This document shows, one piece after another, positions 2,328 to 43,013 of a stretch of DNA of 57,337 nucleotides. Both the position numbers and the translations under genes were made by a program. The DNA lies in assembly GCA_016188155.1 (NCBI GenBank), contig JACPIH010000011.1:1-57337 (forward strand), read 5' to 3'. Within the stretch, counting starts at the first letter, position 1; each line of letters begins with the position of its first letter. The notes below the pieces were generated by a model, which saw nothing but the letters and a program-made list of their open reading frames with translations, made no database searches and was not told the origin of the DNA. Origin of the DNA: Candidatus Woesearchaeota archaeon. GTDB lineage: Archaea > Nanobdellota > Nanobdellia > Woesearchaeales > UBA10216.

Positions 2328-3212
2328 ATGCTTCAATTCCTTCAGCTTCAGCACATGATTGTGGTTGCGTTTCTAATCGCCGCTTCCGTAAGCGACCTGA
2401 AAAAGAGGGAGGTTCCCAACTGGGTTAATTACGGGCTTGTTGTCATAGGGGTTGGTTTTGGCCTGCTGCAGTCGGTTATTGCTGCTGACTGGCACTTTCT
2501 CGCTTTCAGCATAGCCGGGCTTTTTTCAGCTTTAGCCATTGCAGCGCTGATGTTTTACACAGGCCAGTGGGGCGGTGGTGACAGCAAGCTTCTCATAGGG
2601 ATTGGCGCTGTGTTCGGGCTTTCCTTTGCTGCCGCGAGCCCGTTCGTAGACATTGGCGACCCCCTATTGTCCTTTTTGGTCAACCTTGTGGTTGTAAGCC
2701 TGTTTTACGCCATTGCGTGGGGTGGCTTTCTCGCATTCCGAAGCAGGAAAAGATTTGGCATTGAGCTGAGCCGCCAGCTTAAATCGTATTCCATTTTCAG
2801 GAAGTTTCTGCTTTTGTTTTCGGTAGTTTCTCTTGTAATGGTTCTTGCAATTAACGACATTGTAGTTAGAGTCGGGATTATATCATTGCTTACCACGCTC
2901 TTCTTCGGGCTTTACCTTTCAATCCTTGCAAAGGCAGTTGAGAAGTCGTGCATGCTGAAGCAGCTGAATCCGTTAAAGCTGACCGAGGGCGACTGGATTG
3001 CAAAGGATGTCATCATCAGCGGCAAAAGAATCTGCGGCCCGAAGGACCTCGGCATTGAGAAGAGCCAGATTCGGCAGCTTGTCTCCCTTTACCGCCGCAA
3101 AAAAGTCCGCACAGTTTTGATCAAGGAGGGAATACCGTTCGCGCCCAGCTTCCTCATTGCTTATCTGATAACTGTTTTCTTTGGCAACTTGTTTATTGCG
3201 TTTGTGCGGTGA
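2328..3212 (+). CDS. Prepilin/prearchaellin peptidase (A24 family, GxGD aspartyl protease)
   Basis: Multi-pass membrane protein with SDLKKREVPN (first Asp), WGGGDSKL (GxGD), LTEGDWI and C-terminal GIPFAPSFL. Confidence 0.9.
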   Translation: MLQFLQLQHMIVVAFLIAASVSDLKKREVPNWVNYGLVVIGVGFGLLQSVIAADWHFLAFSIAGLFSALAIAALMFYTGQWGGGDSKLLIGIGAVFGLSFAAASPFVDIGDPLLSFLVNLVVVSLFYAIAWGGFLAFRSRKRFGIELSRQLKSYSIFRKFLLLFSVVSLVMVLAINDIVVRVGIISLLTTLFFGLYLSILAKAVEKSCMLKQLNPLKLTEGDWIAKDVIISGKRICGPKDLGIEKSQIRQLVSLYRRKKVRTVLIKEGIPFAPSFLIAYLITVFFGNLFIAFVR

Positions 3213-3219
3213 TGAAAGA

Positions 3220-3262
3220 GAAAAGCTTTTATATAAGATATTCTTACTATAAGAAAGTAAGA
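3220..3262 (+). promoter_or_regulatory. BRE/TATA-like promoter plus inverted-repeat operator of the AbrB-PIN operon
   Basis: GAAAAGCTTTTATATA followed by the inverted repeat TCTTACT-N7-AGTAAGA (3242-3262), then SD GAGGTGA before ATG 3278. Confidence 0.55.
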
Positions 3263-3277
3263 TTAGAGGTGATTTTT

Positions 3278-3547
3278 ATGGAGATGAAAACAACGAAGAT
3301 GTCGTCAAGAGGGCAGGTAGTTATTCCTGAGAATGTGCGTGCTGTGGTTTCCGCCTCTGAGGGCACGCTTTTTGCAGTTGTTGGCAGTAGTGACACAATT
3401 GTCCTGAAGAAAATAGGCATGCCTTCGAAGGAGGCGCTTATTAAGGATCTGGAAAAAATTGCGCATGAAGGCAGAAAACGCCTTGAAAGCAAGGGACTTA
3501 GGGAATCCGACATTCTTGGTATGGTTCAAAGGGCAAGGAAAGGGTAG
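3278..3547 (+). CDS. AbrB/MazE/SpoVT-family antitoxin
   Basis: TTKMSSRGQVVIPENVR swapped-hairpin motif. SD GAGGTGA upstream of ATG 3278. Directly upstream of a PIN gene. Confidence 0.88.
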   Translation: MEMKTTKMSSRGQVVIPENVRAVVSASEGTLFAVVGSSDTIVLKKIGMPSKEALIKDLEKIAHEGRKRLESKGLRESDILGMVQRARKG

Positions 3548-3550
3548 CAC

Positions 3551-3955
3551 ATGCACGTTGTGCTTGATACAAATGCGCTGCTATCTTCCACCCTTTGGGA
3601 TGGAAGCGTAGCTCAAAAGCTGTTGTTTAAGCTTATCAAGCATGATGTGAAAATTTTTGCTTCTGATGCCATTCTTTCCGAATACAAAAAAGTCCTTAAA
3701 AGGGACTTTAAATATTCCGATGAAAGGATTCTTGATATTACGAAGAAAGTGGTCTCATTTACGACATTGGTAATGCCTGTTGAAAAAGTTGATGTTGTCA
3801 AGGATGACCCTGAGGATAACAAGGTAATTGAGTGCGCTTTGGCATCTTCTTCTGATTGCGTAATTACTTATGATAAGCATTTGCTCAATCTGAAAAGTTT
3901 TGGGAAAATAAGGATTATAACACCAGAGGAGGCTTTTGGACTTCTCGAATTTTGA
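3551..3955 (+). CDS. PIN-domain (VapC-like) toxin
   Basis: VVLDTNAL, DDPEDNKVIECA and ITYDKHLL acidic PIN motifs. Confidence 0.9.
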   Translation: MHVVLDTNALLSSTLWDGSVAQKLLFKLIKHDVKIFASDAILSEYKKVLKRDFKYSDERILDITKKVVSFTTLVMPVEKVDVVKDDPEDNKVIECALASSSDCVITYDKHLLNLKSFGKIRIITPEEAFGLLEF

Positions 3956-5657: not shown

Positions 5658-6138
5658 CCTTTTGTATTATTTTCTGCAGTTCTTCCCTGATGCGCTTAAT
5701 TTGCTCTTCATTCACCCTTGAAATAATATCCTTGGTTTTTATGAAGAAGATCTTGCAATATCTGCTGACAAGCTCTATGGTTCTTGCATCAACAGGTCTG
5801 TCAACGTAATATTGAAGGTCTGTTCTTGCTTTGCCAGCCTTGTTTATGACTTCAATGTCCTGTGGGCTATAAAACTCAGATAAGTGCCTTTTCATGAATT
5901 CTAAGGAACAGGAATGTATTTCGCATTTGATGCCCAGCTTCATCATCAATGAGTAAAGTGAATAATAGCATATGTAATAAGACGTGGCTGCAGTCCATAT
6001 GTTGCTGCTGTTTCGAACAGTTTGGAGTACTGCTATGGATTCTTCAGCCATACTCAAATAAGAATCTGACATGTTGTCATTTGGCTCTACAAGCTCCAAG
6101 CCCTCTTTCTGCTTAAGGCACCAGCTAATTGAAACCGT
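5635..6138 (-). CDS. HEPN-domain protein (partner of the upstream MNT); start probably ACG at 6138, otherwise TTG at 6099
   Basis: SYLSMAEES, SYYICYYSLYSL..GIKCEIH and ARTDLQYY. Overlaps the end of the MNT gene. GGAGG at 6150-6146 precedes an in-frame ACG. Confidence 0.8.
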   Translation of the reverse strand, partial: TVSISWCLKQKEGLELVEPNDNMSDSYLSMAEESIAVLQTVRNSSNIWTAATSYYICYYSLYSLMMKLGIKCEIHSCSLEFMKRHLSEFYSPQDIEVINKAGKARTDLQYYVDRPVDARTIELVSRYCKIFFIKTKDIISRVNEEQIKRIREELQKIIQKGARNGRA

Positions 6139-6706
6139 AGTAATCCCTCCAGAAGGCGTTCACAAACCATTCAACGCCAAAAATTACCACGTGGCTCTTT
6201 GCCATTTCCTTCACAAGGTTGTTCTTCTCTTTTAACAATGCAGTCCACTCCTCTGGAGCAAAGTATTTAATGCTTACGTCAAGGTCCAAAAGCCTTCCTG
6301 TCTCGTCGTAGTCGCCGTTTTTCTCATTTCCTATGACAAAGACATCCACGTCAGAGCCTTCTTTCTCCGCTCCTCTTGCGTAGCTCCCAAAAATTCCGAC
6401 AGTTCTGGCGTCTTCCTTAAACAGGTGTGCCAGTTTTCTGTGCCCTGTCAAAAATTCCGCTTTTCTTGCGATTTCTGTTATCATTACAACGTCCCGTATT
6501 TCCGAGTATTTCAGGTTAAGCCCGTAGTACTTTATGCCACCCTGGCTTCTTGATTTCAGAATGCCTTTATCCTCTAGGTCCGCAAGGGCAAGGGCTATTG
6601 CCTTTTGGCTTAGCGGAACCTTTCCCACCAGCATTCGCCCATAAACCTCTCCTGCATAGTTGCCTAAAAACTGCTCCAGGATGCCAAAATACTTTTTGTG
6701 TATCAT
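6125..6706 (-). CDS. Minimal nucleotidyltransferase (MNT) with N-terminal winged-HTH
   Basis: IFGSYARGAEKEGSDVDVFVIG (GS-x10-DxD). The N-terminal LSQKAIALALADLEDKGIL...KYY segment is wHTH-like. ATG 6706 lies downstream of a TATA box. Confidence 0.88.
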   Translation of the reverse strand: MIHKKYFGILEQFLGNYAGEVYGRMLVGKVPLSQKAIALALADLEDKGILKSRSQGGIKYYGLNLKYSEIRDVVMITEIARKAEFLTGHRKLAHLFKEDARTVGIFGSYARGAEKEGSDVDVFVIGNEKNGDYDETGRLLDLDVSIKYFAPEEWTALLKEKNNLVKEMAKSHVVIFGVEWFVNAFWRDYYGFN

Positions 6707-6707
6707 T

Positions 6708-6747
6708 TTACACAATTGTGTAATTTATTACATATATAATGGTTTCG
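6708..6747 (-). promoter_or_regulatory. MNT-HEPN promoter with a perfect 16-bp palindromic operator
   Basis: Minus strand reads CGAAACCATTATATATG (BRE+TATA). The palindrome TTACACAATTGTGTAA at 6708-6723 lies between TATA and ATG. Confidence 0.6.
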
Positions 6748-6782
6748 TTATTTGCCTTCTCCACAAAGCCGAGTGCAAAATC

Positions 6783-6797
6783 CGAAACCTTTAAATA
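6783..6797 (+). promoter_or_regulatory. BRE/TATA-like promoter, divergent from the MNT operon
   Basis: CGAAACCTTTAAATA, the same motif seen at other promoters in the window. Confidence 0.55.
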
Positions 6798-6889
6798 CTA
6801 CTTCCATACAAATATGGACAAGTAGGGTGGCTTTTTGGGGTGTTGGGCATTAACCTTAGTTTAGTGGCAAATTGGGAGTTGAGGCGCGC

Positions 6890-7051
6890 TTGACAAAAGT
6901 AAAAGTTTCTATGACTATTGACGATGAGATATTTGCCGCTTTCAAGAACTTTTGCAGGCAGAACGGCATGAAGGTCAGCACCAAGGTTGAGCAGCTGATG
7001 AAGGATAACCTCAAGAATGCCACGCTCGGCCAGTTTATCAAGCAGCAATGA
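6890..7051 (+). CDS. Small ribbon-helix-helix (CopG-like) protein, 53 aa, not in the ORF track
   Basis: Manual translation from TTG: MTKVKVSMTIDDEIFAAFKNFCRQNGMKVSTKVEQLMKDNLKNATLGQFIKQQ, an alternating beta-strand followed by two helices. GAGG lies upstream. Confidence 0.72.
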   Translation: MTKVKVSMTIDDEIFAAFKNFCRQNGMKVSTKVEQLMKDNLKNATLGQFIKQQ

Positions 7052-7086
7052 TTCACTTTCACAAATCATAGCGTGAGTAAGTAATG

Positions 7087-7136
7087 TGTGCAATTCCGCA
7101 TATGCGGAATGCACAATCCTGCGAAGCAGGATTTGT
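7087..7136. repeat. Inverted pair of REP-like bulged hairpins
   Basis: TGTGC-A-ATTCCGC-ATAT-GCGGAAT-GCACA overlapping AC-AATCCTGC-GAA-GCAGGATT-T-GT. The single-base bulge lies on opposite arms of the two hairpins. Confidence 0.6.
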
Positions 7137-7159
7137 AAGTAAAGCAATTGTGGGGAAAT

Positions 7160-7510
7160 CAGCCCTTACAAAAAGGGTGTGTCGCTGAATGGGAGATAGG
7201 TTCATACACAATTTGGTATCTTCTTGCGGCAGCCATGGCCCTGCCTTCACTTCTTCGCTTCACTGTTACAGTCAGGCAACATCTCATATTCTTCCGGAAA
7301 TCGGGTTTTTGATTGGCCTTTTTGTAAGAGGTCAGTCGTTTTGGATTGACCCTTTCCCAAAGGGTCACGACACACCCTTATCTCCTTCTCACGCAGGGGA
7401 TAAGGGTGATTTTAATCCTCTTATTGGAAAGAAAAACGCGCTAGGGTTGGTTGGGGCTGTGGACTCAACCCTTAAGACCCTAACCGATTGCCATAAAGGT
7501 TCGGTCGTGC
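7160..7510. other. Highly structured intergenic region (possible ncRNA or regulatory switch)
   Basis: Perfect 12-bp complementary pairs 7165-7176/7317-7328 and 7173-7184/7368-7379, plus hairpins 7347-7367 and 7373-7408. Confidence 0.45.
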
Positions 7511-7580
7511 CCTTAGTACTTTATCAAAATGAAATTTCCCGTTCAGGCCATAGCGCAGCACACATACTGATCACTGACTA

Positions 7581-8030
7581 TTATAAATTTTTCTCTGTAT
7601 CTTTGCCAGCGGGCCTGACAGTACTTGACAGCTTTTCTCCTAGCTGCTTTGTAGAAATCCCAACACCTATTTTGAACAATAGCTTCTCGTATGTCCAAAC
7701 CTTGATGTCCTTTATCAGGCAAAGTGCTACGAAATCCTCGTCTTTCTCATGCGTGCCTAATAGCTCCTTTGCCCTTGGAAGTGATGCCTTATATTCGTTT
7801 ATAGCGACCAACGAAACCCGGCTTAAAATAAGCGATGTGAGCTTTTCTAAATCCTGTAGAGGCAGCTTTGACTTTTCGGCAATATCTTCTTTGTGCTTAA
7901 GAAACTCTTCCTTGAGCCGCTCTGGAGCGCACAGCCTTAACTCATCATCGAATAAAATCTCTAAGATGTCACCCTGCGAAATTAACATCCTGAATAGGAC
8001 GTTCGCATCCAGGACAGCTTCAACAGCCAT
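7581..8030 (-). CDS. PIN-domain (VapC-like) toxin
   Basis: AVLDANVL, EKDEDFVALCL and VWTYEK motifs. Directly downstream of an RHH antitoxin. Confidence 0.85.
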   Translation of the reverse strand: MAVEAVLDANVLFRMLISQGDILEILFDDELRLCAPERLKEEFLKHKEDIAEKSKLPLQDLEKLTSLILSRVSLVAINEYKASLPRAKELLGTHEKDEDFVALCLIKDIKVWTYEKLLFKIGVGISTKQLGEKLSSTVRPAGKDTEKNL

Positions 8031-8264
8031 TCATACCAGCCCTTCTTCCTTAAGGCGTCTGTGCATGGAAGCCTTGACCTTGCTGGCAAGCTCGTCAGCA
8101 TCCTTCTCAGTCATCTTTGACTTTGAGACTATTGACTTGAACAGCTTGTATTCAACAACCCTTTCGGATATAGCTTTCCTCGCTATCTCAGACCAGTTCA
8201 ATTCTGGCAATTTATCCATTTCCTTCTTTAGTTCCTCTGGCAGCGCCAGCGTTAATGTCGGCAT
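8031..8264 (-). CDS. Ribbon-helix-helix (CopG-like) antitoxin
   Basis: MPTLTLALPEELKKEMDKLPELNWSEIARKAI. SD GAGGTGA upstream. Confidence 0.85.
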   Translation of the reverse strand: MPTLTLALPEELKKEMDKLPELNWSEIARKAISERVVEYKLFKSIVSKSKMTEKDADELASKVKASMHRRLKEEGLV

Positions 8265-8282
8265 TTTCATCACCTCAGTTAA

Positions 8283-8327
8283 TGCACATAACACAGTTAA
8301 TTATGTGCAACTTTATAAATCTTTCGC
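8283..8327 (-). promoter_or_regulatory. Promoter and operator of the RHH-PIN pair
   Basis: Minus strand GCGAAAGATTTATAAAG, and inverted repeat TGCACATAA-N9-TTATGTGCA at 8283-8309. Confidence 0.62.
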
Positions 8328-8329
8328 TC

Positions 8330-8450
8330 ATGGACAAAGGCCCGTTGACATGGCTGTGTTACCGCGGCCCTCCGTAAAGGAGGAGGGTAAGGCAGCCGTG
8401 TCCGTGCCGTCCAAACGACCCTTTTCAAAAAAGGGTAAGACGGATTGTTT
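8330..8450. other. Hairpin cluster between TA modules
   Basis: GACATGGCTG...CAGCCGTGTC enclosing CCCTCC-GTAAAGGA-GGAGGG, followed by ACCCTTTT-CAA-AAAAGGGT. Confidence 0.4.
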
Positions 8451-8453
8451 GAG

Positions 8454-8813
8454 TTACCGCTTCGGAAATAGTCGGAAGCCTGTTTCCGAGAGAACGAACA
8501 GCTTGCCTTCAAACTCGTTAACAGAGCTGAGCAGGCTGAGCAGCGCGTCAAGCACAGCTTTTACTAGCGGTGGACTTATCCTTACGAACAGTATGCCTGT
8601 GTATTCTACCGGAGGGAACAGCAGCGTGTTGGCGAAGTGCCTGTCAAATGTCACCAGCACCCTTCCTTCTGACTTAGCAAGTTTAGCAACGTCCTCGTCC
8701 AATGAGCGTGGAATTGGCATCTTTACGTCAAAGCCTTCCAGCGCAAGAGATTCTTTGACTTTAGCAGGGACGTTCTCGTCACACAGAAGCTTTGGCTTTG
8801 GAGAAAGTGACAT
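8454..8813 (-). CDS. DUF5615-like PIN protein (Mut7-C/VapC45-like toxin)
   Basis: KLLCDENVP, DEDVAKLAKSEGRVLVTFDRHF and GILFVR motifs. Coupled to a DUF433 gene. Confidence 0.85.
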   Translation of the reverse strand: MSLSPKPKLLCDENVPAKVKESLALEGFDVKMPIPRSLDEDVAKLAKSEGRVLVTFDRHFANTLLFPPVEYTGILFVRISPPLVKAVLDALLSLLSSVNEFEGKLFVLSETGFRLFPKR

Positions 8814-9042
8814 GCCTTTCCTCTTGTATCAGCTGCGAGGCGTAGCTGATGGCGGCGCTGATGGCTTCCTTGCTGAGCTGGGGGAAGTAGTCCCTAAGAA
8901 TCTCCTCCGCATTCACGCCAGTTCCGAGAAGCTCCAAAACTTGCCACACCATGATTCTCGTGCCTTTGAAAGTGGGCTGGCCGTGGCAGATTTCTTGGTC
9001 AGCAACTATGTGCTCATTAATTTCAACAGCTTTGGTTTTCAT
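8779..9042 (-). CDS. DUF433 family antitoxin
   Basis: IVADQEICHGQPTFKGTRIMVWQVLELL...YFPQLSKEAI..AISYA. ATG 9042 lies about 23 nt below the TATA at 9065-9072. Confidence 0.9.
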   Translation of the reverse strand: MKTKAVEINEHIVADQEICHGQPTFKGTRIMVWQVLELLGTGVNAEEILRDYFPQLSKEAISAAISYASQLIQEERHVTFSKAKASV

Positions 9043-9064
9043 ACAGCGAATATTGGTTCCAGCA

Positions 9065-9299
9065 TATTTAAACCTTTCGCAGGCGGAGGTGTCAGGCAAT
9101 TAGCGGCTTAGCTTTGGGCAAAAAGGGCAAGCTATACGTCAAGTTCGTATTAGCCGCAGCCATCCTAGCTGCCGCCCTCTTCGCCTACTCCGTCTTTGCC
9201 GCAGTTCCAGCCGCAACCCCAGCAATAGTCAACACCAACGCAACCACAGTCAACAGCGTGCAGATAGCCAACGCCTCACTTGAAGGTGATGCTGCATGA
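9065..9299 (+). repeat. Leader repeat copy 1 (minus-strand promoter + SD + truncated signal-peptide ORF 9099/9114-9299)
   Basis: 41 bp (9065-9105) are identical to 10864-10904. Encodes GKKGKLYVKFVLAAAILAAALFAYSVFAAVPAATPAIVNTNATTVNSVQIANAS, then LEGDAA*. Confidence 0.9.
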
Positions 9300-9808
9300 T
9301 GAGGGTGCTTTTGGATACTAACGTGTATGCTAAACTTGTGTTGGATGAAGAGGTTCAGATGGAACTGCTTGGGAGGATACCATCGCAAATTATGGTTTAT
9401 GGAAGCGAAGTGAACAGGCATGAGTTGCGTGACTTGCCCAAAGGGTTACAGCTCTATGACAGGAATGAGCGGATACTGCTTCTGCGCGTTTATGATTTGC
9501 TCACGCAGAAGGAAAAGCGCACCTACAGAACAACTCCTTTCGTGGAGATGCTAGCCCTCAAATATTTTGAAGAATATGTTCGCCTGAAAGGGAACAAGGG
9601 ATATGAGGAGTTAAGGAAGGACTTCGTGATAGTCGCAACTGCGTCGCTTCATAACCTCGACATAATCGTTTCGGAAGATAAGAAGACCATGTTTAGCGCG
9701 GAAGCACGAAAGGCGTATGAAGCAGTTAACCAAAACAATCAGATAAGGACTCCGCAGATGATAGGCTATGCTGAGTTTAAGCAAATGCTGAGGAGGATTG
9801 CGCCATGA
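9296..9808 (+). CDS. PIN-domain toxin 1, coupled to leader copy 1 by an ATGA overlap
   Basis: VLLDTNVY, ELR, KDFVIVATA and VSEDKKTM motifs. SD AGGTGA upstream. Confidence 0.85.
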   Translation: MMRVLLDTNVYAKLVLDEEVQMELLGRIPSQIMVYGSEVNRHELRDLPKGLQLYDRNERILLLRVYDLLTQKEKRTYRTTPFVEMLALKYFEEYVRLKGNKGYEELRKDFVIVATASLHNLDIIVSEDKKTMFSAEARKAYEAVNQNNQIRTPQMIGYAEFKQMLRRIAP

Positions 9809-9819
9809 AGAGGAGTGTG

Positions 9820-9957
9820 TTATGTGGTGTGGTAGCGAATAAAGTCCTTAATTGCCTTGACGAACTCAGGGTCTTTCAGGGCTTCATGTATCTGGCTCTG
9901 CAGTACTTTCCACTCCTTGCTTTCAGACAAAGGCCTTACAGTTACGGATTTTTGCAT
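9820..9957 (-). CDS. 45-aa protein convergent with PIN toxin 1 (candidate antitoxin), not in the ORF track
   Basis: MQKSVTVRPLSESKEWKVLQSQIHEALKDPEFVKAIKDFIRYHTT. Has its own BRE/TATA (minus strand GGAAATGTTTATAAATA, 9987-10003). Paralog at 10719-10841. Confidence 0.75.
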   Translation of the reverse strand: MQKSVTVRPLSESKEWKVLQSQIHEALKDPEFVKAIKDFIRYHTT

Positions 9958-10026
9958 TTTGCTTCAACACGCATCAACGCAAGTCATATTTATAAACATT
10001 TCCATCAAAAACCATTCGGGAGTAAA

Positions 10027-10244
10027 GGGGTGTCTGGGAAATTATCAGCAGCTTGATTAGCTCCAAAAAGGGTAAAATATACGTTAGATTCATGTTAGCG
10101 TTAGCCGTAGTAGCCGCCGCCATCTACGCCTACTCCGCCTTCGCAGCCGTTCCCTCATCCACTCCCTCCATCGTGAACACCAACGGCACTACAATAAACG
10201 GCGTCCCCATCACGAACGCATCTCCCGAAGGTGATGTTGCATGA
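10027..10244 (+). repeat. Leader repeat copy 2 (truncated signal-peptide ORF 10041/10053-10244)
   Basis: Encodes SSKKGKIYVRFMLALAVVAAAIYAYSAFAAVPSSTPSIVNTNGTTINGVPITNAS, then PEGDVA*. 46 bp (10123-10168) are identical to 10977-11022. Confidence 0.9.
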
Positions 10245-10738
10245 GGAGGGTGCTGCTTGATACGAATGTTTACGGCGAAATAGCCATAGACCCTGCTGTA
10301 GCCAGAATCAGGGAACGATTTGTTGGCTCTCAAAAATTTGTTTTTTATGGGAATGAGATAATAAGAAAAGAGTTAAGAGATACTCCGAAGGCTAAAAGGT
10401 TTGGTGACAGCAACCTGAGGATAATCCTTTTATCGTTATACGATGATGTTACAAAGGACCACATTTTGGAAGTTAATTCCGAAGTAATGGAATTGGCGGA
10501 GAACTTCTACGAGGCGTATAAAGAGGTAGGAGGGTTAAAGCCAAAATCAGAGATAATTTCTGACTTTTTGATAGTTTCTGCCGCAGCGGTGCATAACTTA
10601 GATGTGGTTGTGTCAAGCGATGAGAAAACCATGCTCACGGAGAATGCCCTTAAAGCCTATCGCCTCATAACAGCTGTCAAGAAGAAGAAGATGCCTGACA
10701 TGATTCTATACGACAAATTCAGGAGGTGGTTTGTCTGA
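10241..10738 (+). CDS. PIN-domain toxin 2, coupled to leader copy 2 by an ATGA overlap
   Basis: VLLDTNVY, KELRD, SDFLIVSAA and VSSDEKTM motifs. Diverged paralog of 9296-9808. Confidence 0.85.
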   Translation: MRRVLLDTNVYGEIAIDPAVARIRERFVGSQKFVFYGNEIIRKELRDTPKAKRFGDSNLRIILLSLYDDVTKDHILEVNSEVMELAENFYEAYKEVGGLKPKSEIISDFLIVSAAAVHNLDVVVSSDEKTMLTENALKAYRLITAVKKKKMPDMILYDKFRRWFV

Positions 10739-10841
10739 TGAACTCCCTGACTGCTCTGATGAACTCAGGGTCCTTTTGTAATTCCTCTAACTGCTTCCAA
10801 ACGTCCTCGCTTTTAGCCTCCATAACGCTAACTTGTTTCAT
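10719..10841 (-). CDS. 40-aa protein convergent with PIN toxin 2 (candidate antitoxin), not in the ORF track
   Basis: MKQVSVMEAKSEDVWKQLEELQKDPEFIRAVREFIRQTTS. Promoter GCGAAAGGTTTAAATA on the minus strand at 10864-10879. Confidence 0.75.
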   Translation of the reverse strand: MKQVSVMEAKSEDVWKQLEELQKDPEFIRAVREFIRQTTS

Positions 10842-10897
10842 AAGCCGTGTTTACTCATTTCCGTATTTAAACCTTTCGCAGGCGGAGGTGTCAGGCA

Positions 10898-11251
10898 ATT
10901 AGCGTCTTAGCTTTTGGCAAACAGGGCAGGATTTACCTCAGGTTCGTCATAGCCGCAGCGTTCCTCCTCGCATTAGTCTACGCCTACTCCGCCTTCGCAG
11001 CCGTTCCCTCATCCACTCCCTCAATTGTCAACACCAACGGCACTACAATCAGCAGCGTCCAGATTGCCAACGCCTCAATCGCCAGGGCCTCAGACCAGTT
11101 GTGCGGCTCTTCCAACTTCACCAGCGAGAACGGCACCTTCGAAGAGAACTCAACGTTCAAGTGGTTCAAGCGCACCCTTTACCAGCCCCAAAACAAAAGC
11201 CTGGTTGGTTACTGGAAGCTGGATGGGAACGCGAATGACAGCAGACGTTAA
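10898..11251 (+). CDS. True N-terminus (signal peptide, leader copy 3) of the giant LamG protein, ending at a frameshift
   Basis: Frame reads ISVLAFGKQGRIYLRFVIAAAFLLALVYAYSAFAAVPSSTPSIVNT...FEENSTFKWFKR...LVGYWKLDGNANDSRR*. The last part matches the internal repeat FEANSTFKWYKR..LVGYWKLDGNAND. The only SD-spaced start candidate is ATT 10898. Confidence 0.8.
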   Translation: MSVLAFGKQGRIYLRFVIAAAFLLALVYAYSAFAAVPSSTPSIVNTNGTTISSVQIANASIARASDQLCGSSNFTSENGTFEENSTFKWFKRTLYQPQNKSLVGYWKLDGNANDSRR

Positions 11252-14200
11252 CATCAGCAACAGCACAAGCCTGGATATTTATAACCAGATTACGGTTGAG
11301 GCCTGGATTAATCCGGCGTCGCTTCAGAGTGATAGGTTCATCATAACAAAGGGCAGCACAGGTAATAAGGGATGGATTCTTTACGAGAACAACGCCGGGG
11401 CTTTAAGGGCGTGGGTTACTGCTTCAACAACTGCGAGTGCTGAGAAGGAAGACGTTTTAGCTTCAGGCGTGTGGCAGCACATCGCGTTCACTTATGACGG
11501 CTCAAACGTGAGGCTGTATGTCAACGGCACTGAACAGGCCAGTGCCGCACTTTCCGGGGCGATTAACTACAGCGGGTTTGGGCAGCTTGTTTTTGGGCAC
11601 TCCGAAAACGGTCCTACTGGTAGGATGTTCAACGGCTCCATTGACGAAGTCTCCATCTACAACTACGCCAAGAGCGCAGCAGAGATTAAGGCAGACTACG
11701 ACAACTCGCCTTACAAGGCCATGATTTACAAGGATGCGGTGGGGTATTGGCATTTGGATTCGGTGAATGGCTCTAACGTGACTCTGGACGCTACCGGTAA
11801 TGGGAATGATGGTTCACTGGCGTTCTTTAACCAGACCAATGCTACAACAGGAGGCATCATAGGCAACGCACTTGATTTTAGTGTTGCTCTTAGTGGGACT
11901 GTAAATTCAAGAGTCAGGTTTCCGCTTACCAAGGGCTTGGGTGGTGTTCCTGCTGCCGCTAACTTTTCGCTGTCTGCCTGGGTTAAGTGGACAGGCAAGG
12001 CGCAGCCTAACCAAAACATTGTGAGTGCCAATAACTGGAATAATGCCGACAGCTACGGCCTTCATTACAGCGTTTCTGGTGACGGGAAATTATATTCCTC
12101 AATAGGCCAACAGCACAATAACGGCACAGGCATCACCTTCACGCCCATAGTAGGCAGGTGGTACTTTATCGTTGGAACTGCTACCGCAACCCTGCAAAGC
12201 CTTTACATCGACGGCGAGCTGGTATCTAACACCACTGTTGGCAAGGTCGCTGTTGCTGTTACCTCAGTCATACCGCCAAGTATAGGCAGTGCCAGCACAT
12301 CCGGAGTCAACGGCACAGTTGACGAAGTCGGTATTTGGAACAAATCCCTCTCCGCTTCCGAAGTCAAGCAGCTTTACCTGAGAACGTGGTATGACCACTC
12401 CCCCCAGCAGTTCCTGCTCCACCCGAACTATCCTGACCAGCTTGACAACTCCACTCAGAACACGACTTTGCTGCTGCACTTTAATGAGGGAACAGGCACT
12501 ACAACCGCGGACAGCTCGCCTTACGGCAACGCTGGCACGATTTCCGGGGCGTTCTTCACAAACGACTCGATTTCTGGTTCGGCATTGAAATTTGACGGCG
12601 TTAACGACTACGTCCAGGTTAACTACGCCGCGATCTTGAACATCACAACCAACCTTACCATGTCCGGCTGGGTAAAATATTCTGCCCTGCCAAGCGGCCA
12701 AGGCGTCATTATGGGCACATGGGGCGGGGAGAATAATAACAAGTCGTACATGCTGCAAACGTACGGTACCGGGCAAGTTGGCTTTAGCGTGGACGGCGCT
12801 ACCGAAGCAAGCAGCGCAAGTAATGCAGTGCAGGTTGGCCAGTGGTTTTACATTGCTGGAGTTATTGCCGGTTCCAATTACACCCTTTTCCTTAACGGCA
12901 AACCAGTTGACTCAGGCGCATTCGCACCCCCAAACAGAGTCGGCTCAGAGAATTTTTACGTTGGAGGCGACGCTGGCAAGTGGGGCCTTGGAGATGTTGA
13001 AGGCGTCATTGACGAGGTCAAAATCGTCAACCGCTCACTTTCCGATGCAGAAATCGCTGCCGAGTACAGGAAGGGCTGCCCGTTCTGCAGCAGCGACAGC
13101 GAGTTGCCCACGACAACTTCGGGCGTTGTGTGGCAGCCTGGGAGGTTTGTGGAGAACCTGACTGTTGACAGCACAGTGGCTGCATACTGGCGGTTTGACG
13201 AAGTCACCGGCTCAACAGTTTACGACATCAGCGGCAACGGCAACACAGGCTACAACTTCACAGGCAGGTTTACTAATGACAGCGTTGGCGGGACTGCTGC
13301 GAACTTCACCACAGGCAAATACTTTAACGTGAGCAACAGCAACAGCCTGAACGTCAACGGCAGCCTGACGATAGCTGCGTGGGTGAAGATTGCTGAAAAT
13401 TCAACTCTCAAAAACATTGTTGAGAAGGGTGACAGTTCTACTGACAAGAGGCAATACGCGCTCGGCATTGTCAATGACAATCCCAGATTCAGGGTGGAAA
13501 GGAGCGCTGGCGCAGATTATGCGGGAATAGACTCAGCATACAACCTTACAGTTGGCAGGTGGTATTACATCGTTGGCAGGTATGACCAGGCTTCCAGAGA
13601 CTCAAGCATTTACATTGACGGCATAAACACGAGCGGCAAGAGAGCTACCGGTCATGCGGCAAATCTTACTCCGCCGTTTGACATAAACCTGCTCATAGGC
13701 GCAGGAACTAGCGAAACGCCCGCTTCGTTTATGAACGGCTCCATTGACGAGCTCATAATCTACAGCAAGGCGCTTTCGCAGCAGGAAATACTCACCAATT
13801 ACAAGAAAGCCGCCAAAGGGCTTGGTCTTTTGAGCAACGACTACATAAACTACTCAGCAAGCAGCAACTTCAATGAAAGAGAAGGCACGATAGAGTTTTG
13901 GGTGAAGCCGGAGTGGAACGGGAATGGTGAAAACAGACCTCACGTTTTTGTTACTGCTGAGAAAACTAATAATGATTTCTTAATATATAAAGAATCTACC
14001 AATGAACTGCAGATTTTTGTACAAGATACCATCTTTATGGAATACGACGTCAGTGGATGGACTTCAGGCAACTGGAAGCACGTTGCGTTTACTTGGAACA
14101 ACTACACTTCTAACATGACTTTGCATGTTGATGGCACTCAAATAAACAATTCAGGCACAGCATTTACCATTCCCGCCCAAAACTATTTGGCGTTAGGTGC

Positions 14201-17200
14201 ACAAAACATCGGAAGCACACCTGCCACTTTTTGCAACTGCACCCTGTCCGAGTTCCGCATCTCAAGGAAAGCCCTCTCTGCACAGGAAATCAACGAGAGC
14301 TTCAGCAAGTCTCGCCAGCTTTACAGCAACGAGTTCATGCTCAACAGGAGCAACTTTGCGAAGGGCGACAGCTTCAAGGTCGAGTACACTGCAATGGACA
14401 AGGATAACCAGACTGGCAGCCCTGTGAATAGCAGCTTCATAACCGTTGTTAACACTCCTCCTGTCGCTGTTAACCTTTCTCTGCCCGCTTCTGGCACCAC
14501 TGTGCTTGACTTTGTCAACATTACTTGGAATGCCACAACCGATGCCGATAACGACTCATTTACTTACGTTGTTCTGGTTAACGGCACTACGCAATGCAAC
14601 AATCCTAACTCGGTGCTTAACTGCACCTACACCCCTTCAGCCAACGGCTTCTACCTTTACAACATCACGGCCTTTGACGGCACAGAAAACAGCACGCCGA
14701 CCAACGGCAATTTCACCTTTACCAACCTTGCTCCTAACGTGACTTATTATCAGCCGACCCCTTCAGACGCTGCTGTCATAACTGCGAACACTTTTACAGT
14801 CAACGTTTCCATTAACGAAACAACAGTTGACAGTTGCAGGCTGGAGCTTTACAACTCGACCAATGCTTCAAGGCTTAACTATTCCATGAGCAGCACAAAA
14901 CTTGCAGTTGGAAGCCCCAACCGGTACTACTGCAACATCACCGTAAGCACTGACAACGGCGTCACTTACTATTACCGCGTTTTCGCCAACGACACGCCGA
15001 TAGGTGCAACAACCGCTACTGCTGTGCGAAGCGTCAGGGAGAACATGCCTGCAAACTTCTCGCCAGCAGGGCTTGGCTCTGCAAGGAACGTCAGCCTGAA
15101 CGTAAGTACAGTTAACCCGGCAACTGGTCAGCCGCAGAGCCTTATTCCCGGCACGACAACGCCTTCAACTTCCCTTTACAAGCTCAGCCAGCTCGTTGGC
15201 TTTGCAGAAAACTACTCAGACCAGGACAGGGACTTTGAGGCCAACAGCACGTTCAAGTGGTACAAGCGTACCGAAGCAGCGAGGAAGGGCCTGGTTGGCT
15301 ACTGGAAGCTGGACGGCAACGCGAATGACAACAGCGGGAAAGGCAATGATGGTAACGGCACCTTTGTGCTCGGCTCTGGGCGCATTGACGGCGCGCAGCA
15401 ATTCTCAACTACTGTTCCGGCAAGGATAATAAACATCAGCGGAGACCCTTACAACTTCGGCACTGGAGATTTCACAGTTGAGTTTTGGACCAAAGACGCA
15501 GCAAGTAATGGCGCTTGTCTTGTATCAAAGTGGGACAACCTTGTAAATAGCAATCCTGGCTGGTCTATTCAATATATGTCTTCTGGGGGAGCAATACGGG
15601 CTACAATTAACGCCAGTGGAGGGGGGGAATTTACCCAATTTACAAGTGACACGGCAAATGTTGGGGACGGCGCATGGCACCACGTTGCTGTTACATTTGA
15701 CAGGGATGGCAGCGTTGTAATTTACGTTGACGGGACAAGCAAGGGTTCCTCAGGCATATCAGGAGTTTCAGGAAGCGTCAATAATAATCTGCATCTCCGC
15801 TTCGGAGCTTGCCACCGAGGCGGTGCTGACTATAGTGGCTCAACAGAAGCGCTCATGGACGAAGTCTCCATCTACAACTACGCCAAGTCAGCTGCCGAGA
15901 TTAAGGCAGACTACGACAACTCGCCTTACAAGGCCATGATTTACAAGGACGCTGTGGGCTACTGGCACTTGGATGAGAATGGCGGCACCAGCGGGTATGC
16001 GGACAGTTCAGGGAGTGGGAATACTGGAGCACCAAGGAATGGCACAATTAACACTACAGGCAAGATTAACGGCGGCGTCACTTTTGGAAGTTTTGGCTAT
16101 GTCAACCTTTCGCCAATTACCTTGAACAACTTCACAGTGGTTGCATGGCTTAACCCGAACGGCACAAGTGGTGCAGTAGTGGATGCTGAGCTGTGCGGGA
16201 TTACGGACGATTGGGGCATTCACAGCGCCTCAGGCAAGGGCGGAACAGTCAGGTTCCAGTTCGGGGATAACTCGGCAAACAAAGACTTTTTCCTTAACTC
16301 AACAGGCGTTTTGTCCAATAACACATGGTCTCATCTTGCTGTTTCCAGGAACGGGACAACTATCAGTTTTTACATCAATGGCATTCTTGATAACACAGCT
16401 ACAGGACCGCACACGAAGGATTTGGGTGCTACAAGTCCTGAGTGTGACATATACGGCAGGGCAATAGGCATCGGCAACCAGCAACGCGCCGCAGGTCTTG
16501 GAACTAGCACCGCCTTTGGCGGCACCATTGACGAAGTCGGAATCTGGAACAAGACCCTCAACGCTTCCGAAGTCAAGCAGCTTTACCTCAGGACGTGGTA
16601 TGACCACTCGCCTCAGCAGTTCCTCCTCCATCCCAACTATCCCGAAGAAGTTGACAACAGCACGCAGAACACGACCTTGCTGCTGCACTTCAACGACGTT
16701 TCTCCCAGTAATCCCAACTTGACCGACAGCTCGCCTTACGGCAATAATGGCAACATAAGCGGGGCGTTCTTTACCAACGACTCTATCTCAGGGAGTGCTT
16801 TGAGCTTTGATGGGAGCACAAGTTATGTGAACATAACTACAGACCCTGATATTACAAGCGCTACGAATTATCTTACTGTTATGTTGTGGGTTAAGGCTAC
16901 TGTAAGGAATGCTCAGGAATATATGTTTGCCAGAAGCCCGGATGCCAACAATTACGCGCCAATTATCCTTAAGCAAGCTGATCAGACCATCTCAGCTGTG
17001 GTTGATAACGCTGGCACAAGAAGCGTACAGCTCGATTCAGTTACCAAACTGCAGGCTAACATATGGACGCATGTGGCATTTACGTTTGACTACCCCAACA
17101 GTAACGCGAGGCTGTATATAAATGGCAAACTTGAAAATTCTACTGTTCCTATAACAGCGATGACTTCCACAGCAGCACAGGCTTCACTTGGTATGTTGCG

Positions 17201-18653
17201 CTCCGCCACATTCCCCCTCCTAGGTACCATCGACGAGCTCAAAATCGTCAACCGCTCCCTCACCGCTGCTGAAATCGCTGCGGACTACAAGAAAGGCGTT
17301 AGGTTTGGCAGCAGCGACGGCGAAGTCCCAACCACCGAAAGTGGTGTTGTGTGGCAGCCTGGGAAGTTTGTGGAGAACCTGACGGTTGATACCAACACTT
17401 CTGGCTACTGGAGGTTTGATGAGGGAACAGGGCAGAATGTTTCAGACCTTTCCTCTTTTGCAAACTTTGGCGTTCTTGGTGCGAATGGCAATGCTGGAAC
17501 TGACGACCCGACATGGGTAAATGACAGTGCGGGCGGAAACGCTTTAAAGTTTGACGGCGTGAACGATTACGTTGACGCAGGCAACGCTTCAAGCCTGAGG
17601 ACAGCCAACATTACAGTTGAAGTGTGGGTTAAACCGAATGATAAACGTAATGGCGCTAATCCTGGCATACTTTACAAAGGACAAACCAACAATGAAGACA
17701 ATGGTGATTACTCGTTTGACATTTTCAACAGTAATGCGAGGTTCATGGTTAACAATAGCAAGGGACAGGCTACCGGCTCTACTAAACTTCAAAACAACAC
17801 TTGGCATCATATTGTCGGAACGTACGACGCCAGCGCAAGCGCAAACAATATGAAGGTATACGTCAACGGCATTTTAGAAGCGCAGAGCACCTATTCTGGT
17901 GGCATTAACTCCACCGGCAACTCTCTGAAAATCGGTTATTACTACTCTTCCGGCTTTTTCTGCAACTGCACCATCGACGAAGTCCGCATCCTCAACCGCT
18001 CACTTTCCGCAGCAGAAATCCTTTCCGACTACCGCAAAGCCGCCAAGGGCGTTTACTTCGGGCAGGGCGCTTACCTCAATTACAGCGATAAGGGAAACCA
18101 GAACAACAATGTTAGCGGCAACAATTACGATGAAGGCACTGTTGAGTCTTGGGTGAAGCTTGACAGCAGTAAGGGCAACTCACTTAATATGATAGCTGAT
18201 TTTGAAAGCACAGGATCCAACGGTTTAACGTTTCATATCAACGCGGGAAAGTTACGGTTACAGTACGGCAATGGCAGCACAAATACCGTTATTATAACCA
18301 CCACTACGACACTTGCTAAAGATATTTGGCATCACGTGGCAGCGACTTGGAGTTCAAGCGGCACAGCAGTTTACGTAAACGGAGTTTTGGAAGCAAGCGG
18401 CGGAGACCCAGTGATTAACATCTCGGACATAAACCCTGGAATATTTATAGGCGCTCAAAGCCCTGGCACGACAAGGTACCTGAACGGCACCCTGTCCGAG
18501 TTCCGCATTTCCAGAAAGGCTTTGTCAGCCCAGGAAATCAACGAGAGCTTCAGCAAGGGCCGCCAATACTTCAGCAACGAAATCTTCCTGAACAACAGCA
18601 ACTTCAACAAGTGGGACAGCTTCAAGCTGGGCTACCAACTATATTACTGTTAA
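11241..18653 (+). CDS. Giant surface protein, part 2: ten LamG (ConA-like) domains in two 5-domain super-repeats
   Basis: Repeated GYWxxD...TxxAW...WxHxxxT...Y(V/I)NG...GxIDE(V/L)xIxN motifs and dense N-x-S/T sequons. The ORF-track region 11025-11240 is off-frame. Confidence 0.9.
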   Translation, partial: ADVNISNSTSLDIYNQITVEAWINPASLQSDRFIITKGSTGNKGWILYENNAGALRAWVTASTTASAEKEDVLASGVWQHIAFTYDGSNVRLYVNGTEQASAALSGAINYSGFGQLVFGHSENGPTGRMFNGSIDEVSIYNYAKSAAEIKADYDNSPYKAMIYKDAVGYWHLDSVNGSNVTLDATGNGNDGSLAFFNQTNATTGGIIGNALDFSVALSGTVNSRVRFPLTKGLGGVPAAANFSLSAWVKWTGKAQPNQNIVSANNWNNADSYGLHYSVSGDGKLYSSIGQQHNNGTGITFTPIVGRWYFIVGTATATLQSLYIDGELVSNTTVGKVAVAVTSVIPPSIGSASTSGVNGTVDEVGIWNKSLSASEVKQLYLRTWYDHSPQQFLLHPNYPDQLDNSTQNTTLLLHFNEGTGTTTADSSPYGNAGTISGAFFTNDSISGSALKFDGVNDYVQVNYAAILNITTNLTMSGWVKYSALPSGQGVIMGTWGGENNNKSYMLQTYGTGQVGFSVDGATEASSASNAVQVGQWFYIAGVIAGSNYTLFLNGKPVDSGAFAPPNRVGSENFYVGGDAGKWGLGDVEGVIDEVKIVNRSLSDAEIAAEYRKGCPFCSSDSELPTTTSGVVWQPGRFVENLTVDSTVAAYWRFDEVTGSTVYDISGNGNTGYNFTGRFTNDSVGGTAANFTTGKYFNVSNSNSLNVNGSLTIAAWVKIAENSTLKNIVEKGDSSTDKRQYALGIVNDNPRFRVERSAGADYAGIDSAYNLTVGRWYYIVGRYDQASRDSSIYIDGINTSGKRATGHAANLTPPFDINLLIGAGTSETPASFMNGSIDELIIYSKALSQQEILTNYKKAAKGLGLLSNDYINYSASSNFNEREGTIEFWVKPEWNGNGENRPHVFVTAEKTNNDFLIYKESTNELQIFVQDTIFMEYDVSGWTSGNWKHVAFTWNNYTSNMTLHVDGTQINNSGTAFTIPAQNYLALGAQNIGSTPATFCNCTLSEFRISRKALSAQEINESFSKSRQLYSNEFMLNRSNFAKGDSFKVEYTAMDKDNQTGSPVNSSFITVVNTPPVAVNLSLPASGTTVLDFVNITWNATTDADNDSFTYVVLVNGTTQCNNPNSVLNCTYTPSANGFYLYNITAFDGTENSTPTNGNFTFTNLAPNVTYYQPTPSDAAVITANTFTVNVSINETTVDSCRLELYNSTNASRLNYSMSSTKLAVGSPNRYYCNITVSTDNGVTYYYRVFANDTPIGATTATAVRSVRENMPANFSPAGLGSARNVSLNVSTVNPATGQPQSLIPGTTTPSTSLYKLSQLVGFAENYSDQDRDFEANSTFKWYKRTEAARKGLVGYWKLDGNANDNSGKGNDGNGTFVLGSGRIDGAQQFSTTVPARIINISGDPYNFGTGDFTVEFWTKDAASNGACLVSKWDNLVNSNPGWSIQYMSSGGAIRATINASGGGEFTQFTSDTANVGDGAWHHVAVTFDRDGSVVIYVDGTSKGSSGISGVSGSVNNNLHLRFGACHRGGADYSGSTEALMDEVSIYNYAKSAAEIKADYDNSPYKAMIYKDAVGYWHLDENGGTSGYADSSGSGNTGAPRNGTINTTGKINGGVTFGSFGYVNLSPITLNNFTVVAWLNPNGTSGAVVDAELCGITDDWGIHSASGKGGTVRFQFGDNSANKDFFLNSTGVLSNNTWSHLAVSRNGTTISFYINGILDNTATGPHTKDLGATSPECDIYGRAIGIGNQQRAAGLGTSTAFGGTIDEVGIWNKTLNASEVKQLYLRTWYDHSPQQFLLHPNYPEEVDNSTQNTTLLLHFNDVSPSNPNLTDSSPYGNNGNISGAFFTNDSISGSALSFDGSTSYVNITTDPDITSATNYLTVMLWVKATVRNAQEYMFARSPDANNYAPIILKQADQTISAVVDNAGTRSVQLDSVTKLQANIWTHVAFTFDYPNSNARLYINGKLENSTVPITAMTSTAAQASLGMLRSATFPLLGTIDELKIVNRSLTAAEIAADYKKGVRFGSSDGEVPTTESGVVWQPGKFVENLTVDTNTSGYWRFDEGTGQNVSDLSSFANFGVLGANGNAGTDDPTWVNDSAGGNALKFDGVNDYVDAGNASSLRTANITVEVWVKPNDKRNGANPGILYKGQTNNEDNGDYSFDIFNSNARFMVNNSKGQATGSTKLQNNTWHHIVGTYDASASANNMKVYVNGILEAQSTYSGGINSTGNSLKIGYYYSSGFFCNCTIDEVRILNRSLSAAEILSDYRKAAKGVYFGQGAYLNYSDKGNQNNNVSGNNYDEGTVESWVKLDSSKGNSLNMIADFESTGSNGLTFHINAGKLRLQYGNGSTNTVIITTTTTLAKDIWHHVAATWSSSGTAVYVNGVLEASGGDPVINISDINPGIFIGAQSPGTTRYLNGTLSEFRISRKALSAQEINESFSKGRQYFSNEIFLNNSNFNKWDSFKLGYQLYYC
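18495..18636 (+). repeat. 142-bp direct repeat, copy A (copy B at 21703-21844); both end at a frameshift
   Basis: TCCGAGTTCCGCATTTCC...TTCAAGCTGGGCTACC is identical in both copies. Confidence 0.9.
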
Positions 18654-42999: not shown

Positions 43000-43013
43000 A
43001 ATAGTGGTGTCGC

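Follow-up and report, generated by a model that had tools for sequence, protein, structure and literature searches.

We describe a tandem array of small gene cassettes at positions 9065..11251 of a 57,337-nt stretch of DNA (the window) from Candidatus Woesearchaeota archaeon (Archaea; Nanobdellota; Nanobdellia; Woesearchaeales; UBA10216; assembly GCA_016188155.1, contig JACPIH010000011.1). The 5′ end of a neighbouring giant gene, comprising its promoter and signal-peptide start and here called the leader, is present three times in the array, and the first two copies each run into a gene for a PIN-domain protein that faces a small convergent gene, here called the micro-protein gene. On balance, the array is probably a set of tandem toxin-antitoxin (TA)-like cassettes, in which the duplicated leader copies serve both as expression platform and as homology for recombination. 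With a similarly modest preference, we place it as an insertion between a small TA island and the giant Laminin_G gene of a Woesearchaeota-type (DPANN) archaeon of about 1 Mb. The array has a defined anatomy, with mosaic tracts in the leaders and a constant coupling frame between leader and PIN gene, and it is conserved in relatives, where its composition varies. The architecture is real, conserved and unusual; the toxin fold is a known one, and what is new is the partner, the layout and the use of a host-gene leader as the boundary of a cassette.

The assembly comprises 1.07 Mb in 41 contigs and is 88.7% complete, with the window as contig C30. The sequencing runs that contain the window sequence are groundwater metagenomes by their labels. 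The array lies between a TA-rich stretch on one side and the giant gene, which is made of Laminin_G_3 repeats (Pfam E=3e-67), on the other. DPANN archaea are host-attached and have tiny genomes, yet they carry giant surface proteins and many TA and defence genes. The features of the array are as follows.

9065..9105: 41-bp block identical to 10864-10904, with a palindromic TATA box (TTTAAA at 9067), a purine-rich flank on the minus side that resembles a B recognition element (BRE), and GGAGGTG
9114..9299, plus strand: truncated leader ORF 1, 61 aa from TTG, ending ..NASLEGDAA*
9296..9808, plus strand: PIN1, 170 aa, subtype A, VapC-like; its ATGA start overlaps the leader stop, with the Shine-Dalgarno (SD) match AGGTGAT at 9284-9290
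9820..9957, minus strand: micro-protein 1, 45 aa, convergent to PIN1 with a gap of 12 nt, C-terminal motif KDPEF..A.K.FI....
9986..9997: TATA box of leader unit 2 (TTTATAAA), 38 nt upstream of the ATG of micro-protein 1 and ~30 nt upstream of a plus-strand GGGGTG
10053..10244, plus strand: truncated leader ORF 2, 63 aa from TTG, ending ..NASPEGDVA*
10123..10168: 46-bp block identical to 10977-11022 of leader copy 3
10241..10738, plus strand: PIN2, 165 aa, subtype B, 40% identical to PIN1
10719..10841, minus strand: micro-protein 2, 40 aa, overlapping the 3′ end of PIN2 by 20 nt; its ATG is 30 nt from the TATA box at 10866
10864..11244, plus strand: leader unit 3, the real 5′ end of the giant gene, with the frame open from 10871

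Leader copies and their probable coupling to PIN genes

The original prediction for this locus had claimed that the leader occurs three times, that copies 1 and 2 break off one codon after ..NAS and continue into a common junction, and that this junction supplies an SD sequence and an ATGA overlap into strongly diverged PIN genes without evident promoters of their own. It had also claimed that each PIN gene faces a small convergent gene whose promoter lies in the next leader, and that copy 3 is a mosaic. All of these claims held. The three copies of the giant gene's 5′ end lie at 9065-9300, ~9986-10244 and 10864-11244. A repeat search returned a 209-nt family at 9119-9327, 10064-10272 (73%) and 10918-11126 (66%), as well as a 102-nt pair at 9065-9166 and 10864-10965 (88%). 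When the 236-nt leader unit was searched as DNA against the whole 1.07-Mb assembly, it was confined to the three sites in the window, and other matches had E>0.2. Copies 1 and 2 are open for 61 and 63 codons and encode a basic N-terminus, a hydrophobic core, an A-x-A site and about 30 further residues. Read as protein, they end in ..ANAS-L-EGDAA* and ..TNAS-P-EGDVA*, respectively, and the sequence GAAGGTGATG(C/T)TGCATGA is common to both, starting 3 nt past NAS.

Along its length, copy 3 resembles copy 1 in the promoter, then copy 2 at the end of the signal peptide and then copy 1 again. At 76 informative sites, 48 were like copy 1 and 28 like copy 2, arranged in 14 runs, and 14 runs or fewer were obtained in 0 of 100000 shuffles. 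Copy 3 is a mosaic of copies 1 and 2, with statistical support, and contains both the 41-bp and the 46-bp identities. No match to the 41-bp promoter block was found in metagenome contigs. The 18-nt junction gave 114 matches in metagenome contigs, but none of the 80 loci that were fetched had a PIN gene next to it, and these were rejected as chance matches.

A comparison of leader copies 1 and 2 gave a ratio of non-synonymous to synonymous substitution rates (dN/dS) of 0.12, with 27 synonymous versus 19 non-synonymous differences in 53 codons, and leader ORFs in general evolve under constraint (dN/dS 0.12-0.26). These values fit signal-peptide stubs that would be translated and functional.

Both PIN assignments rest on several methods. 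PIN1 matched Pfam PF01850 with E=5e-5 (24.2 bits against a cut-off of 23.6), and PIN2 matched it with E=2e-3 (19.1 bits, under the gathering score). The AlphaFold2 (AF2) model of PIN1 (pLDDT 94, pTM 0.88) has the alpha/beta/alpha fold of PIN domains. Foldseek returned 23 matches to PIN1 at E<=0.001, and the top ones were VapC toxins of Shigella, Rickettsia, Haemophilus and Salmonella and archaeal PIN proteins from Pyrococcus (E 4e-5 to 1e-3). Three acidic active-site residues, D7, E43 and D109, are kept without change in all 18 relatives, with a fourth D/E in a ..S.D.. segment. The window's PINs belong to the PIN/VapC fold class and would act as toxins.

In both cassettes the leader stop TGA overlaps the PIN ATG as ATGA (9296-9299 and 10241-10244), and AGGTGAT stands 5 nt upstream of both ATGs. 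This coupling is kept in the window's family, where 18 of 19 PIN genes follow a leader ORF that ends in an NTGA overlap with the PIN start. This count consists of 17 found by script (upstream ORF of at least 30 aa with an NTGA overlap) and PIN1 of the window, which was read by eye; the uncoupled gene is a copy in genome G021. Sequence of the giant gene's 5′ end was recognisable before 16 of the 19. In G018 the leader is a remnant that lacks the signal peptide. A 362-aa ORF ahead of the G018 PIN gene was rejected as a real gene, being antisense to a PIN_2 TA pair. The junctions between leader and PIN fall into at least three classes, all in the coupling frame:

directly past the signal peptide: G012, G007
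past ..NAS: the window (twice), G010, G006 and G012 (three times, with three extra codons there)
past ..LDGNAN, ~110 codons in: G025 (three times)

One overlapping frame across all junction classes is hard to explain without selection for coupling.

A signal peptide directly before a nuclease, beside a giant surface protein, also resembles a secreted or polymorphic toxin. Frameshifting or read-through would then produce a fusion of signal peptide and PIN that is exported, like the displaced cassettes of contact-dependent growth inhibition (CDI) and Rhs systems, and diverse cassettes with a small cognate partner do recall toxin/immunity arrays. However, the leader stop is kept in 18 of 18 leader-preceded PIN genes of the family, and the PIN, which has an SD and a start of its own, always lies in the overlapping -1 frame. 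The fused form was seen in none of the loci examined, no conserved slippery site was visible in the sequences, and the same PIN is mostly leaderless outside the family (23 of 30). We therefore regard secretion of the PIN as extremely improbable.

A further idea concerns the truncated signal-peptide ORF itself, which could act as a 'monitor' peptide. Engagement of the signal recognition particle (SRP) and Sec would decide on reinitiation at the NTGA, the export state would gate the PIN, and the leader copies would in addition be the homology by which integrase-free cassettes spread between genomes with the same surface gene. SecM, MifM and VemP are models for such export-monitor logic. This idea is drawn by analogy, and we give it little credence.

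Convergent micro-proteins and putative shared promoters

The DNA of the micro-protein ORF diverges across the order, whereas its alignment shows conservation as protein. The micro-protein motif was found with 26 of 30 PINs outside the family and, by strict pattern, with 11 of 19 in the window's family, and the subtypes of PIN and micro-protein (A, B, C and E) co-vary across genera. The AF2 model of micro-protein 1 consists of a disordered N-terminus and a two-helix hairpin (pLDDT 85). The ESM Atlas held no usable match to the micro-protein. A by-eye reading of it as a beta-alpha-alpha protein like ribbon-helix-helix (RHH) antitoxins was supported by no search.

The convergent arrangement allows for a type-I-like antisense control, in which the micro gene would act mainly as an RNA that overlaps the PIN mRNA and the peptide would be secondary. 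The 20-nt coding overlap of pair 2 and the 12-nt gap of pair 1 agree with this. Moreover, no oligo-T run is present between the convergent stops, so the PIN and micro transcripts probably overlap. Conservation of the ORF as protein, with its motif recurring inside and outside the family, and the confident two-helix model argue against it. We consider antisense control improbable as the main function of the micro gene; it may coexist with a role of the protein.

Only three TATA-like hexamers (9067, 9989 and 10866) lie outside gene bodies within 9000-11300; two further ones fall inside genes, at 10517 in PIN2 and at 11278 in the giant gene. The PIN genes thus have no visible promoter of their own, and throughout the window's family no TATA-like motif belonging to the PIN genes was found. 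Each micro gene has its TATA box in the following leader unit, 38 nt before the ATG of micro-protein 1 and 30 nt before that of micro-protein 2. GCGAAAGG or GGAAATG precedes each TATA box on the minus strand, and this purine-rich BRE-like flank orients the promoter block toward the micro gene. Of 14 minus-strand cassette genes examined across the family, 10 have a TATA box that begins 29-32 nt from the ATG and follows GCGAAAGG or GGAAAG. In archaeal BRE/TATA promoters such a spacing is the geometry of leaderless mRNAs. Being palindromic (TTTAAA, TTTATAAA), the TATA boxes could plausibly work in both directions, and the shared TATA box may also drive the leader with its PIN gene, and the giant gene, on the plus strand.

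We propose that the TATA box and BRE-like flank of a leader copy would drive the upstream micro gene as a leaderless or near-leaderless mRNA, and that in the other direction the leader copy would be transcribed and translated as a short signal-peptide ORF. Ribosomes that end at the NTGA would reinitiate on the TATA-less PIN gene by termination-reinitiation. The micro-protein made from the neighbouring promoter would counteract its PIN, with the overlapping convergent transcripts as a possible extra layer. Cassettes bounded by 150-400 bp of leader homology could be added, deleted, reordered and exchanged by homologous recombination or gene conversion. Such recombination between leaders would explain why the leaders of an array have remained similar although the PINs are ancient paralogues. 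Among the window ORFs scanned, none had a recombinase domain; the rest of the genome was not searched for recombinases.

Cassettes in related genomes and rival origins

With a PIN profile, the PIN family turned up in 10 of the 26 genomes of the window's family and, across the order, in 43 of 401 sampled genomes. The latter include the unpublished genome G156, which has one ordinary stand-alone locus and does not by itself carry any claim. In the other families, 26 of 30 PIN genes are followed by a convergent small ORF that ends in a KDPEF..F(I/V)K..T-type motif, and 23 of 30 lack a leader-type ORF upstream. The PIN/micro module does not, therefore, depend on the leader, and on the sequence evidence PIN and convergent micro-protein form an autonomous two-gene module.

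Subtype A is present in the window, G025 and G018, subtype B in the window, G012 and G010, and subtype C in G012 and G006. PINs of one subtype are 58-73% identical across genera, as opposed to 24-42% between the window's two PINs and PINs of other subtypes. The order of cassettes toward the giant gene differs between genomes:

window: DUF433/DUF5615 pair, A, B
G010: B
G006: DUF433/DUF5615 pair, C
G005: DUF433/DUF5615 pair only, no PIN
G007: two PINs
G012: four PINs, the last two C and B
G025: at least eight cassettes, including a second type of cargo

The second cargo of G025 is a protein of 162-241 aa that matches PIN_3 weakly (E=0.002) and is paired with a small convergent gene of its own. 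It belongs with a ..IDLDVVTV.. cargo family, whose members and positions are:

locus L030 (G025:C48), 2008-2496, 3095-3619 and 7375-8100, and locus L121, 5190-5672: ..IDLDVVTV.. cargo proteins of 160-241 aa, with a convergent partner of 53-68 aa of no known family

The DUF433/DUF5615 pair is also preceded by a leader fragment in G006 and G005.

The same layout occurs with unrelated leaders in at least four other families (G126, G063, G266 and G227). There, the ORF coupled to the PIN gene copies the N-terminus of the local downstream secreted protein of 628-941 aa. In G227 (L125, G227:C83, 3171-4496), a leader copy stands before an AlbA_2/HATPase_c_4/HTH gene instead of a PIN gene, and the AlbA_2-ATPase and PIN cargos share the same junction point and a linker of ~12 nt. 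By BLAST, direct repeats of at least 40 bp lie upstream of the PIN gene and downstream of the micro gene in 9 of 33 PIN loci of other families. At ~3190-3280 of locus L120 (G266:C3) we observed a leader copy with a ~90-nt insertion that resembles a miniature inverted-repeat transposable element and has internal inverted repeats; outside the insertion, the copy matches the 5′ end of the 628-aa gene downstream at 98% identity.

At 9069, 9110, 9951 and 11186, which are leader or cassette borders, contigs from the same samples diverge from the window sequence and continue into other leader or cassette variants. Co-occurring relatives thus carry different arrays. One of these departing contigs is identical to the junction of leader fragment and DUF5615 of the G006 type.

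The original prediction had also stated that the layout departs from the co-oriented type II TA operon, which agrees with the convergent PIN/micro arrangement, conserved across the order, and it had proposed a comparison of unit number and PIN variants in related genomes; both differ between the arrays listed above. Its picture of an expandable array that recombines through the leader was supported in part: variable arrays and recombination tracts in the leaders are present, and expansion and shuffling themselves would follow from the comparison of genomes. Likewise, its view that toxin expression is tied to the signals of the adhesin gene agrees with the NTGA coupling in 18 of 19 PIN genes, but the promoter flank points at the micro gene, and the drive of the PIN gene is inferred. 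It had named PIN genes without leader copies in relatives as an outcome that would speak against it. Such genes are common outside the window's family (23 of 30), whereas 18 of 19 within it are leader-coupled.

Several points weigh against the reading of the array as TA-like cassettes expressed and recombined through their leaders. Searches of the micro-protein against Pfam and NCBIfam at E<=1 gave chance-level matches and no VapB-type or other antitoxin family, the best E of a PDB profile search was 0.04, and Foldseek returned nothing at E<=0.001; the micro-protein is presumably the cognate inhibitor of its PIN. The plus-strand side of the TATA box has no purine-rich BRE, and in copies 1 and 3 the TATA box is only 12 nt from GGAGGTG, so the SD sequence may precede the transcript start. 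Transcription in both directions and translational coupling are putative. The low dN/dS of the leaders could alternatively stem from their past inside functional genes or from gene conversion. At the 41-bp and 46-bp repeats, the Logan contigs (k=31) end exactly 30 nt in from either side and so do not fix the cassette order; their graph is also compatible with reversed cassettes or with an 854-bp circle made of the PIN2 cassette. The bridge from micro-protein gene 2 to leader 3 (10698-10988) is a single contig, from a second study. Finally, some PIN genes of G266 and G227 stand directly after full-length large genes, which fits an origin by internal deletion of tandem paralogues.

The breaks of the Logan contigs at both repeats, together with loose ends from other variants in the same samples, could indicate that strain variants of a single leader locus were strung together in the assembly, so that the three-copy array is not one molecule. 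The source is a metagenome-assembled genome of 41 contigs, and the join at 11244|11245 is unsupported. On the other hand, the leader copies differ by 20-34% and the PINs by 60%, as expected of paralogues and not of strain variants. The unique segments are similar in depth across four runs, the second-study contig does bridge 10698-10988, and multi-cassette arrays of the same design are present in independent assemblies (four cassettes in G012, at least eight in G025, two in G007, and further arrays in G006, G266 and G227). An artefact of assembly is, in our judgement, very improbable.

The main rival is decay. Tandem paralogous genes for large secreted proteins, each with a PIN gene and a convergent micro gene, would have undergone internal deletions that left stubs of promoter and signal peptide, joined to the ribosome-binding site of the PIN gene. 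In G266 and G227 some PIN genes do start 4-22 nt past the stop of a full-length or long ORF (more than 628 and more than 750 aa). In addition, the leader junctions vary, and their 3′ side is always just upstream of the PIN SD, like deletion endpoints constrained by selection. However, the giant gene of the window is followed by pilin-like genes and no PIN, and its C-terminus differs from the ..EGDAA* end of the stub. The coupling frame is kept in 18 of 19 cases in the family and also in G126, G063, G266 and G227, whereas random deletions would keep it in about one third. The dN/dS of 0.12-0.26 in the stubs and the junction point and ~12 nt linker shared by the AlbA_2-ATPase and PIN cargos of G227 also disagree with decay. 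We consider decay of paralogues unlikely and retain the cassette array as our preferred explanation.

Known systems, the giant gene and flanking elements

The array resembles VapBC systems in its PIN fold with acidic residues, in a small adjacent partner that co-varies with the PIN, in the presence of several diverged copies per genome and in its setting in a TA-rich island (PIN_2, PIN_3, DUF433/DUF5615 and nucleotidyltransferase genes). It differs in that the partner is downstream, convergent and 40-45 aa long, whereas the VapBC antitoxin is co-oriented, usually upstream and in one operon. The upstream 'antitoxin position' is held in the window by a truncated signal-peptide ORF from the neighbouring surface-protein gene, and the micro-protein matched no DNA-binding antitoxin domain (RHH, AbrB, PHD or HTH).

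Integron and superintegron arrays are tandem, TA-enriched series of small cassettes at one chromosomal site, with a tyrosine-recombinase integrase, attI and promoterless cassettes bounded by attC. Like them, the window array consists of variable tandem TA-type cassettes whose repeated boundaries allow gain and loss. In contrast to integrons, no integrase or attC-like sites were found in the window ORFs and sequence scanned (an integrase elsewhere in the genome was not searched for), the boundaries are copies of a host gene's promoter and 5′ coding region, each with a TATA box, and each cassette brings or receives its own promoter and translation start. The Bacillus type I TA pairs txpA/RatA and bsrG/SR4 are convergent, and their toxins are membrane peptides. 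They share with the window convergent genes for a toxin and an antagonist, both putative in the window, with overlapping 3′ ends, but the antagonist in the window is a conserved protein-coding ORF and the toxin a predicted cytoplasmic nuclease.

Like the orphan cassettes of CDI and Rhs systems (PMC3482391), the window has diverse cassettes of a nuclease and a small partner clustered at a giant surface-protein gene, repeated pieces of which can mediate recombination. In CDI/Rhs-type systems the toxin domain is fused to the C-terminus of the large secreted protein and orphan copies lie downstream, at the 3′ end, whereas the cassettes of the window lie at the 5′ end of the giant gene. The window PIN is a separate ORF that is never fused, and the repeat is promoter and signal peptide and not a pre-toxin domain. 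At the level of abstracts, we found no description in the literature of leader-flanked PIN cassettes or of the convergent PIN/micro module in Woesearchaeota or DPANN.

The design recurs in at least five families of one order: a large surface-protein gene has its promoter and signal-peptide start duplicated, and the copies are reused as the probable platform of expression and recombination for nuclease cassettes. If our inferences hold, this would be an integrase-free route by which TA or defence arrays are built and shuffled, and toxin expression would be physically linked to the expression signals of the cell's main surface protein. The convergent PIN/micro module would escape standard TA finders, which expect co-oriented pairs.

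From its Laminin_G_3 repeats, the giant protein is a putative adhesin. Its gene and the associated features in the window are:

2328-3212: prepilin peptidase
11025-18653, 18679-21879 and 21998-42478, plus strand: ORF pieces of the giant gene, of which the first long piece past the join at 11244/11245 is 11247..18653
11244/11245: join spanned by no contig of four runs, which yields an apparent frameshift and a stop at 11251

At this join, runs X1, X2 and X4 have loose ends on both sides and run X5 before 11245. Contigs that end at 11244 go on with other sequence that keeps the leader frame open, and those that start at 11245 are preceded by other sequence. As no contig supports the join, the stop at 11251 and the frameshift reflect a missing piece of the assembly and not a pseudogene, and the end coordinate of the array is an artefact. 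We flag this assembly error, as the giant gene would otherwise resemble a pseudogene; its orthologue in G006 stays open through 10883 codons. Two later breaks, at 18653/18679 and 21879/21998, may resemble the 11244|11245 join.

No in-frame ATG, GTG or TTG precedes the signal peptide of the giant gene in the window, nor in the intact orthologues of G006, G010, G001 and G005, and where a start codon would usually stand, the gene has TTA or CTC. An in-frame ATT is present in the window at 10898, 7 nt past GGAGGTG. Comparison of start sites (window 10885-10925; L034 ~3400-3450; L033 ~2440-2490; L089; L090) placed an in-frame ATT 7-12 nt past GGRGGTG in the window, G006, G010, G005 and G001, and an ATC 8 nt past GGGGTG in G012. 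This suggests that the giant gene may use a non-canonical AUU/AUC start. At its other end, the giant gene shares a GTGA stop/start overlap with a gene for a 174-aa protein whose hydrophobic N-terminus is pilin-like (window 42475-44489), and more pilin-like genes lie beyond, with a weak Pilin_N match at 43905-44489. The giant protein ends in ..LEVRVQ*, and ..EGDAA* was accordingly rejected as its own C-terminus.

Upstream of the array, the TA-rich stretch contains the following features.

3551-3955: PIN_3 gene
6125-6715: nucleotidyltransferase gene
7581-8294: PIN_2 pair
8331..8420, plus strand: GC-rich hairpin element of ~85 nt, nearly invariant in alignments and single-copy in the assembly, with a TATA box upstream at 8312-8319
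8454..8813, minus strand: DUF5615 (Mut7-C-like) gene, the second of the DUF433/DUF5615 pair (Pfam E=3e-14)
8779..9042, minus strand: DUF433 gene (Pfam E=4e-21), with its ATG 30 nt from the TATA box of leader unit 1

The cassette region is bordered upstream by the hairpin element in the window, G003, G005, G006, G007 and G010; copies were compared at window 8312-8420 and in L042, L040, L043, L060, L063 and L045. In G007, G010 and G003 the first leader begins 20-45 nt past it, and in G001 (L063) it lies ~5.8 kb upstream of the start of the giant gene. RNAalifold predicted 31 pairs, with compensatory changes in 3; in the G003 copy, the apical loop is enlarged by an insertion of ~55 nt. A search of 6000-12000 against Rfam at E<=1, which included the element, gave zero matches. 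SRP RNA was ruled out as its identity, as the SRP RNA sits on another contig. The element may be a structured 5′ untranslated region or a small RNA of unknown type. ARAGORN found no tRNA in the window.

A 640-codon ORF (7189-9111, plus strand) runs antisense to four of the TA genes, and similarly long antisense ORFs with a conserved MGD.F..NL start are present in G005, G006, G007, G010 and G018. With a Ser/Leu-rich antisense composition, the 640-codon ORF is probably spurious, although so great a length and the conserved start are odd.

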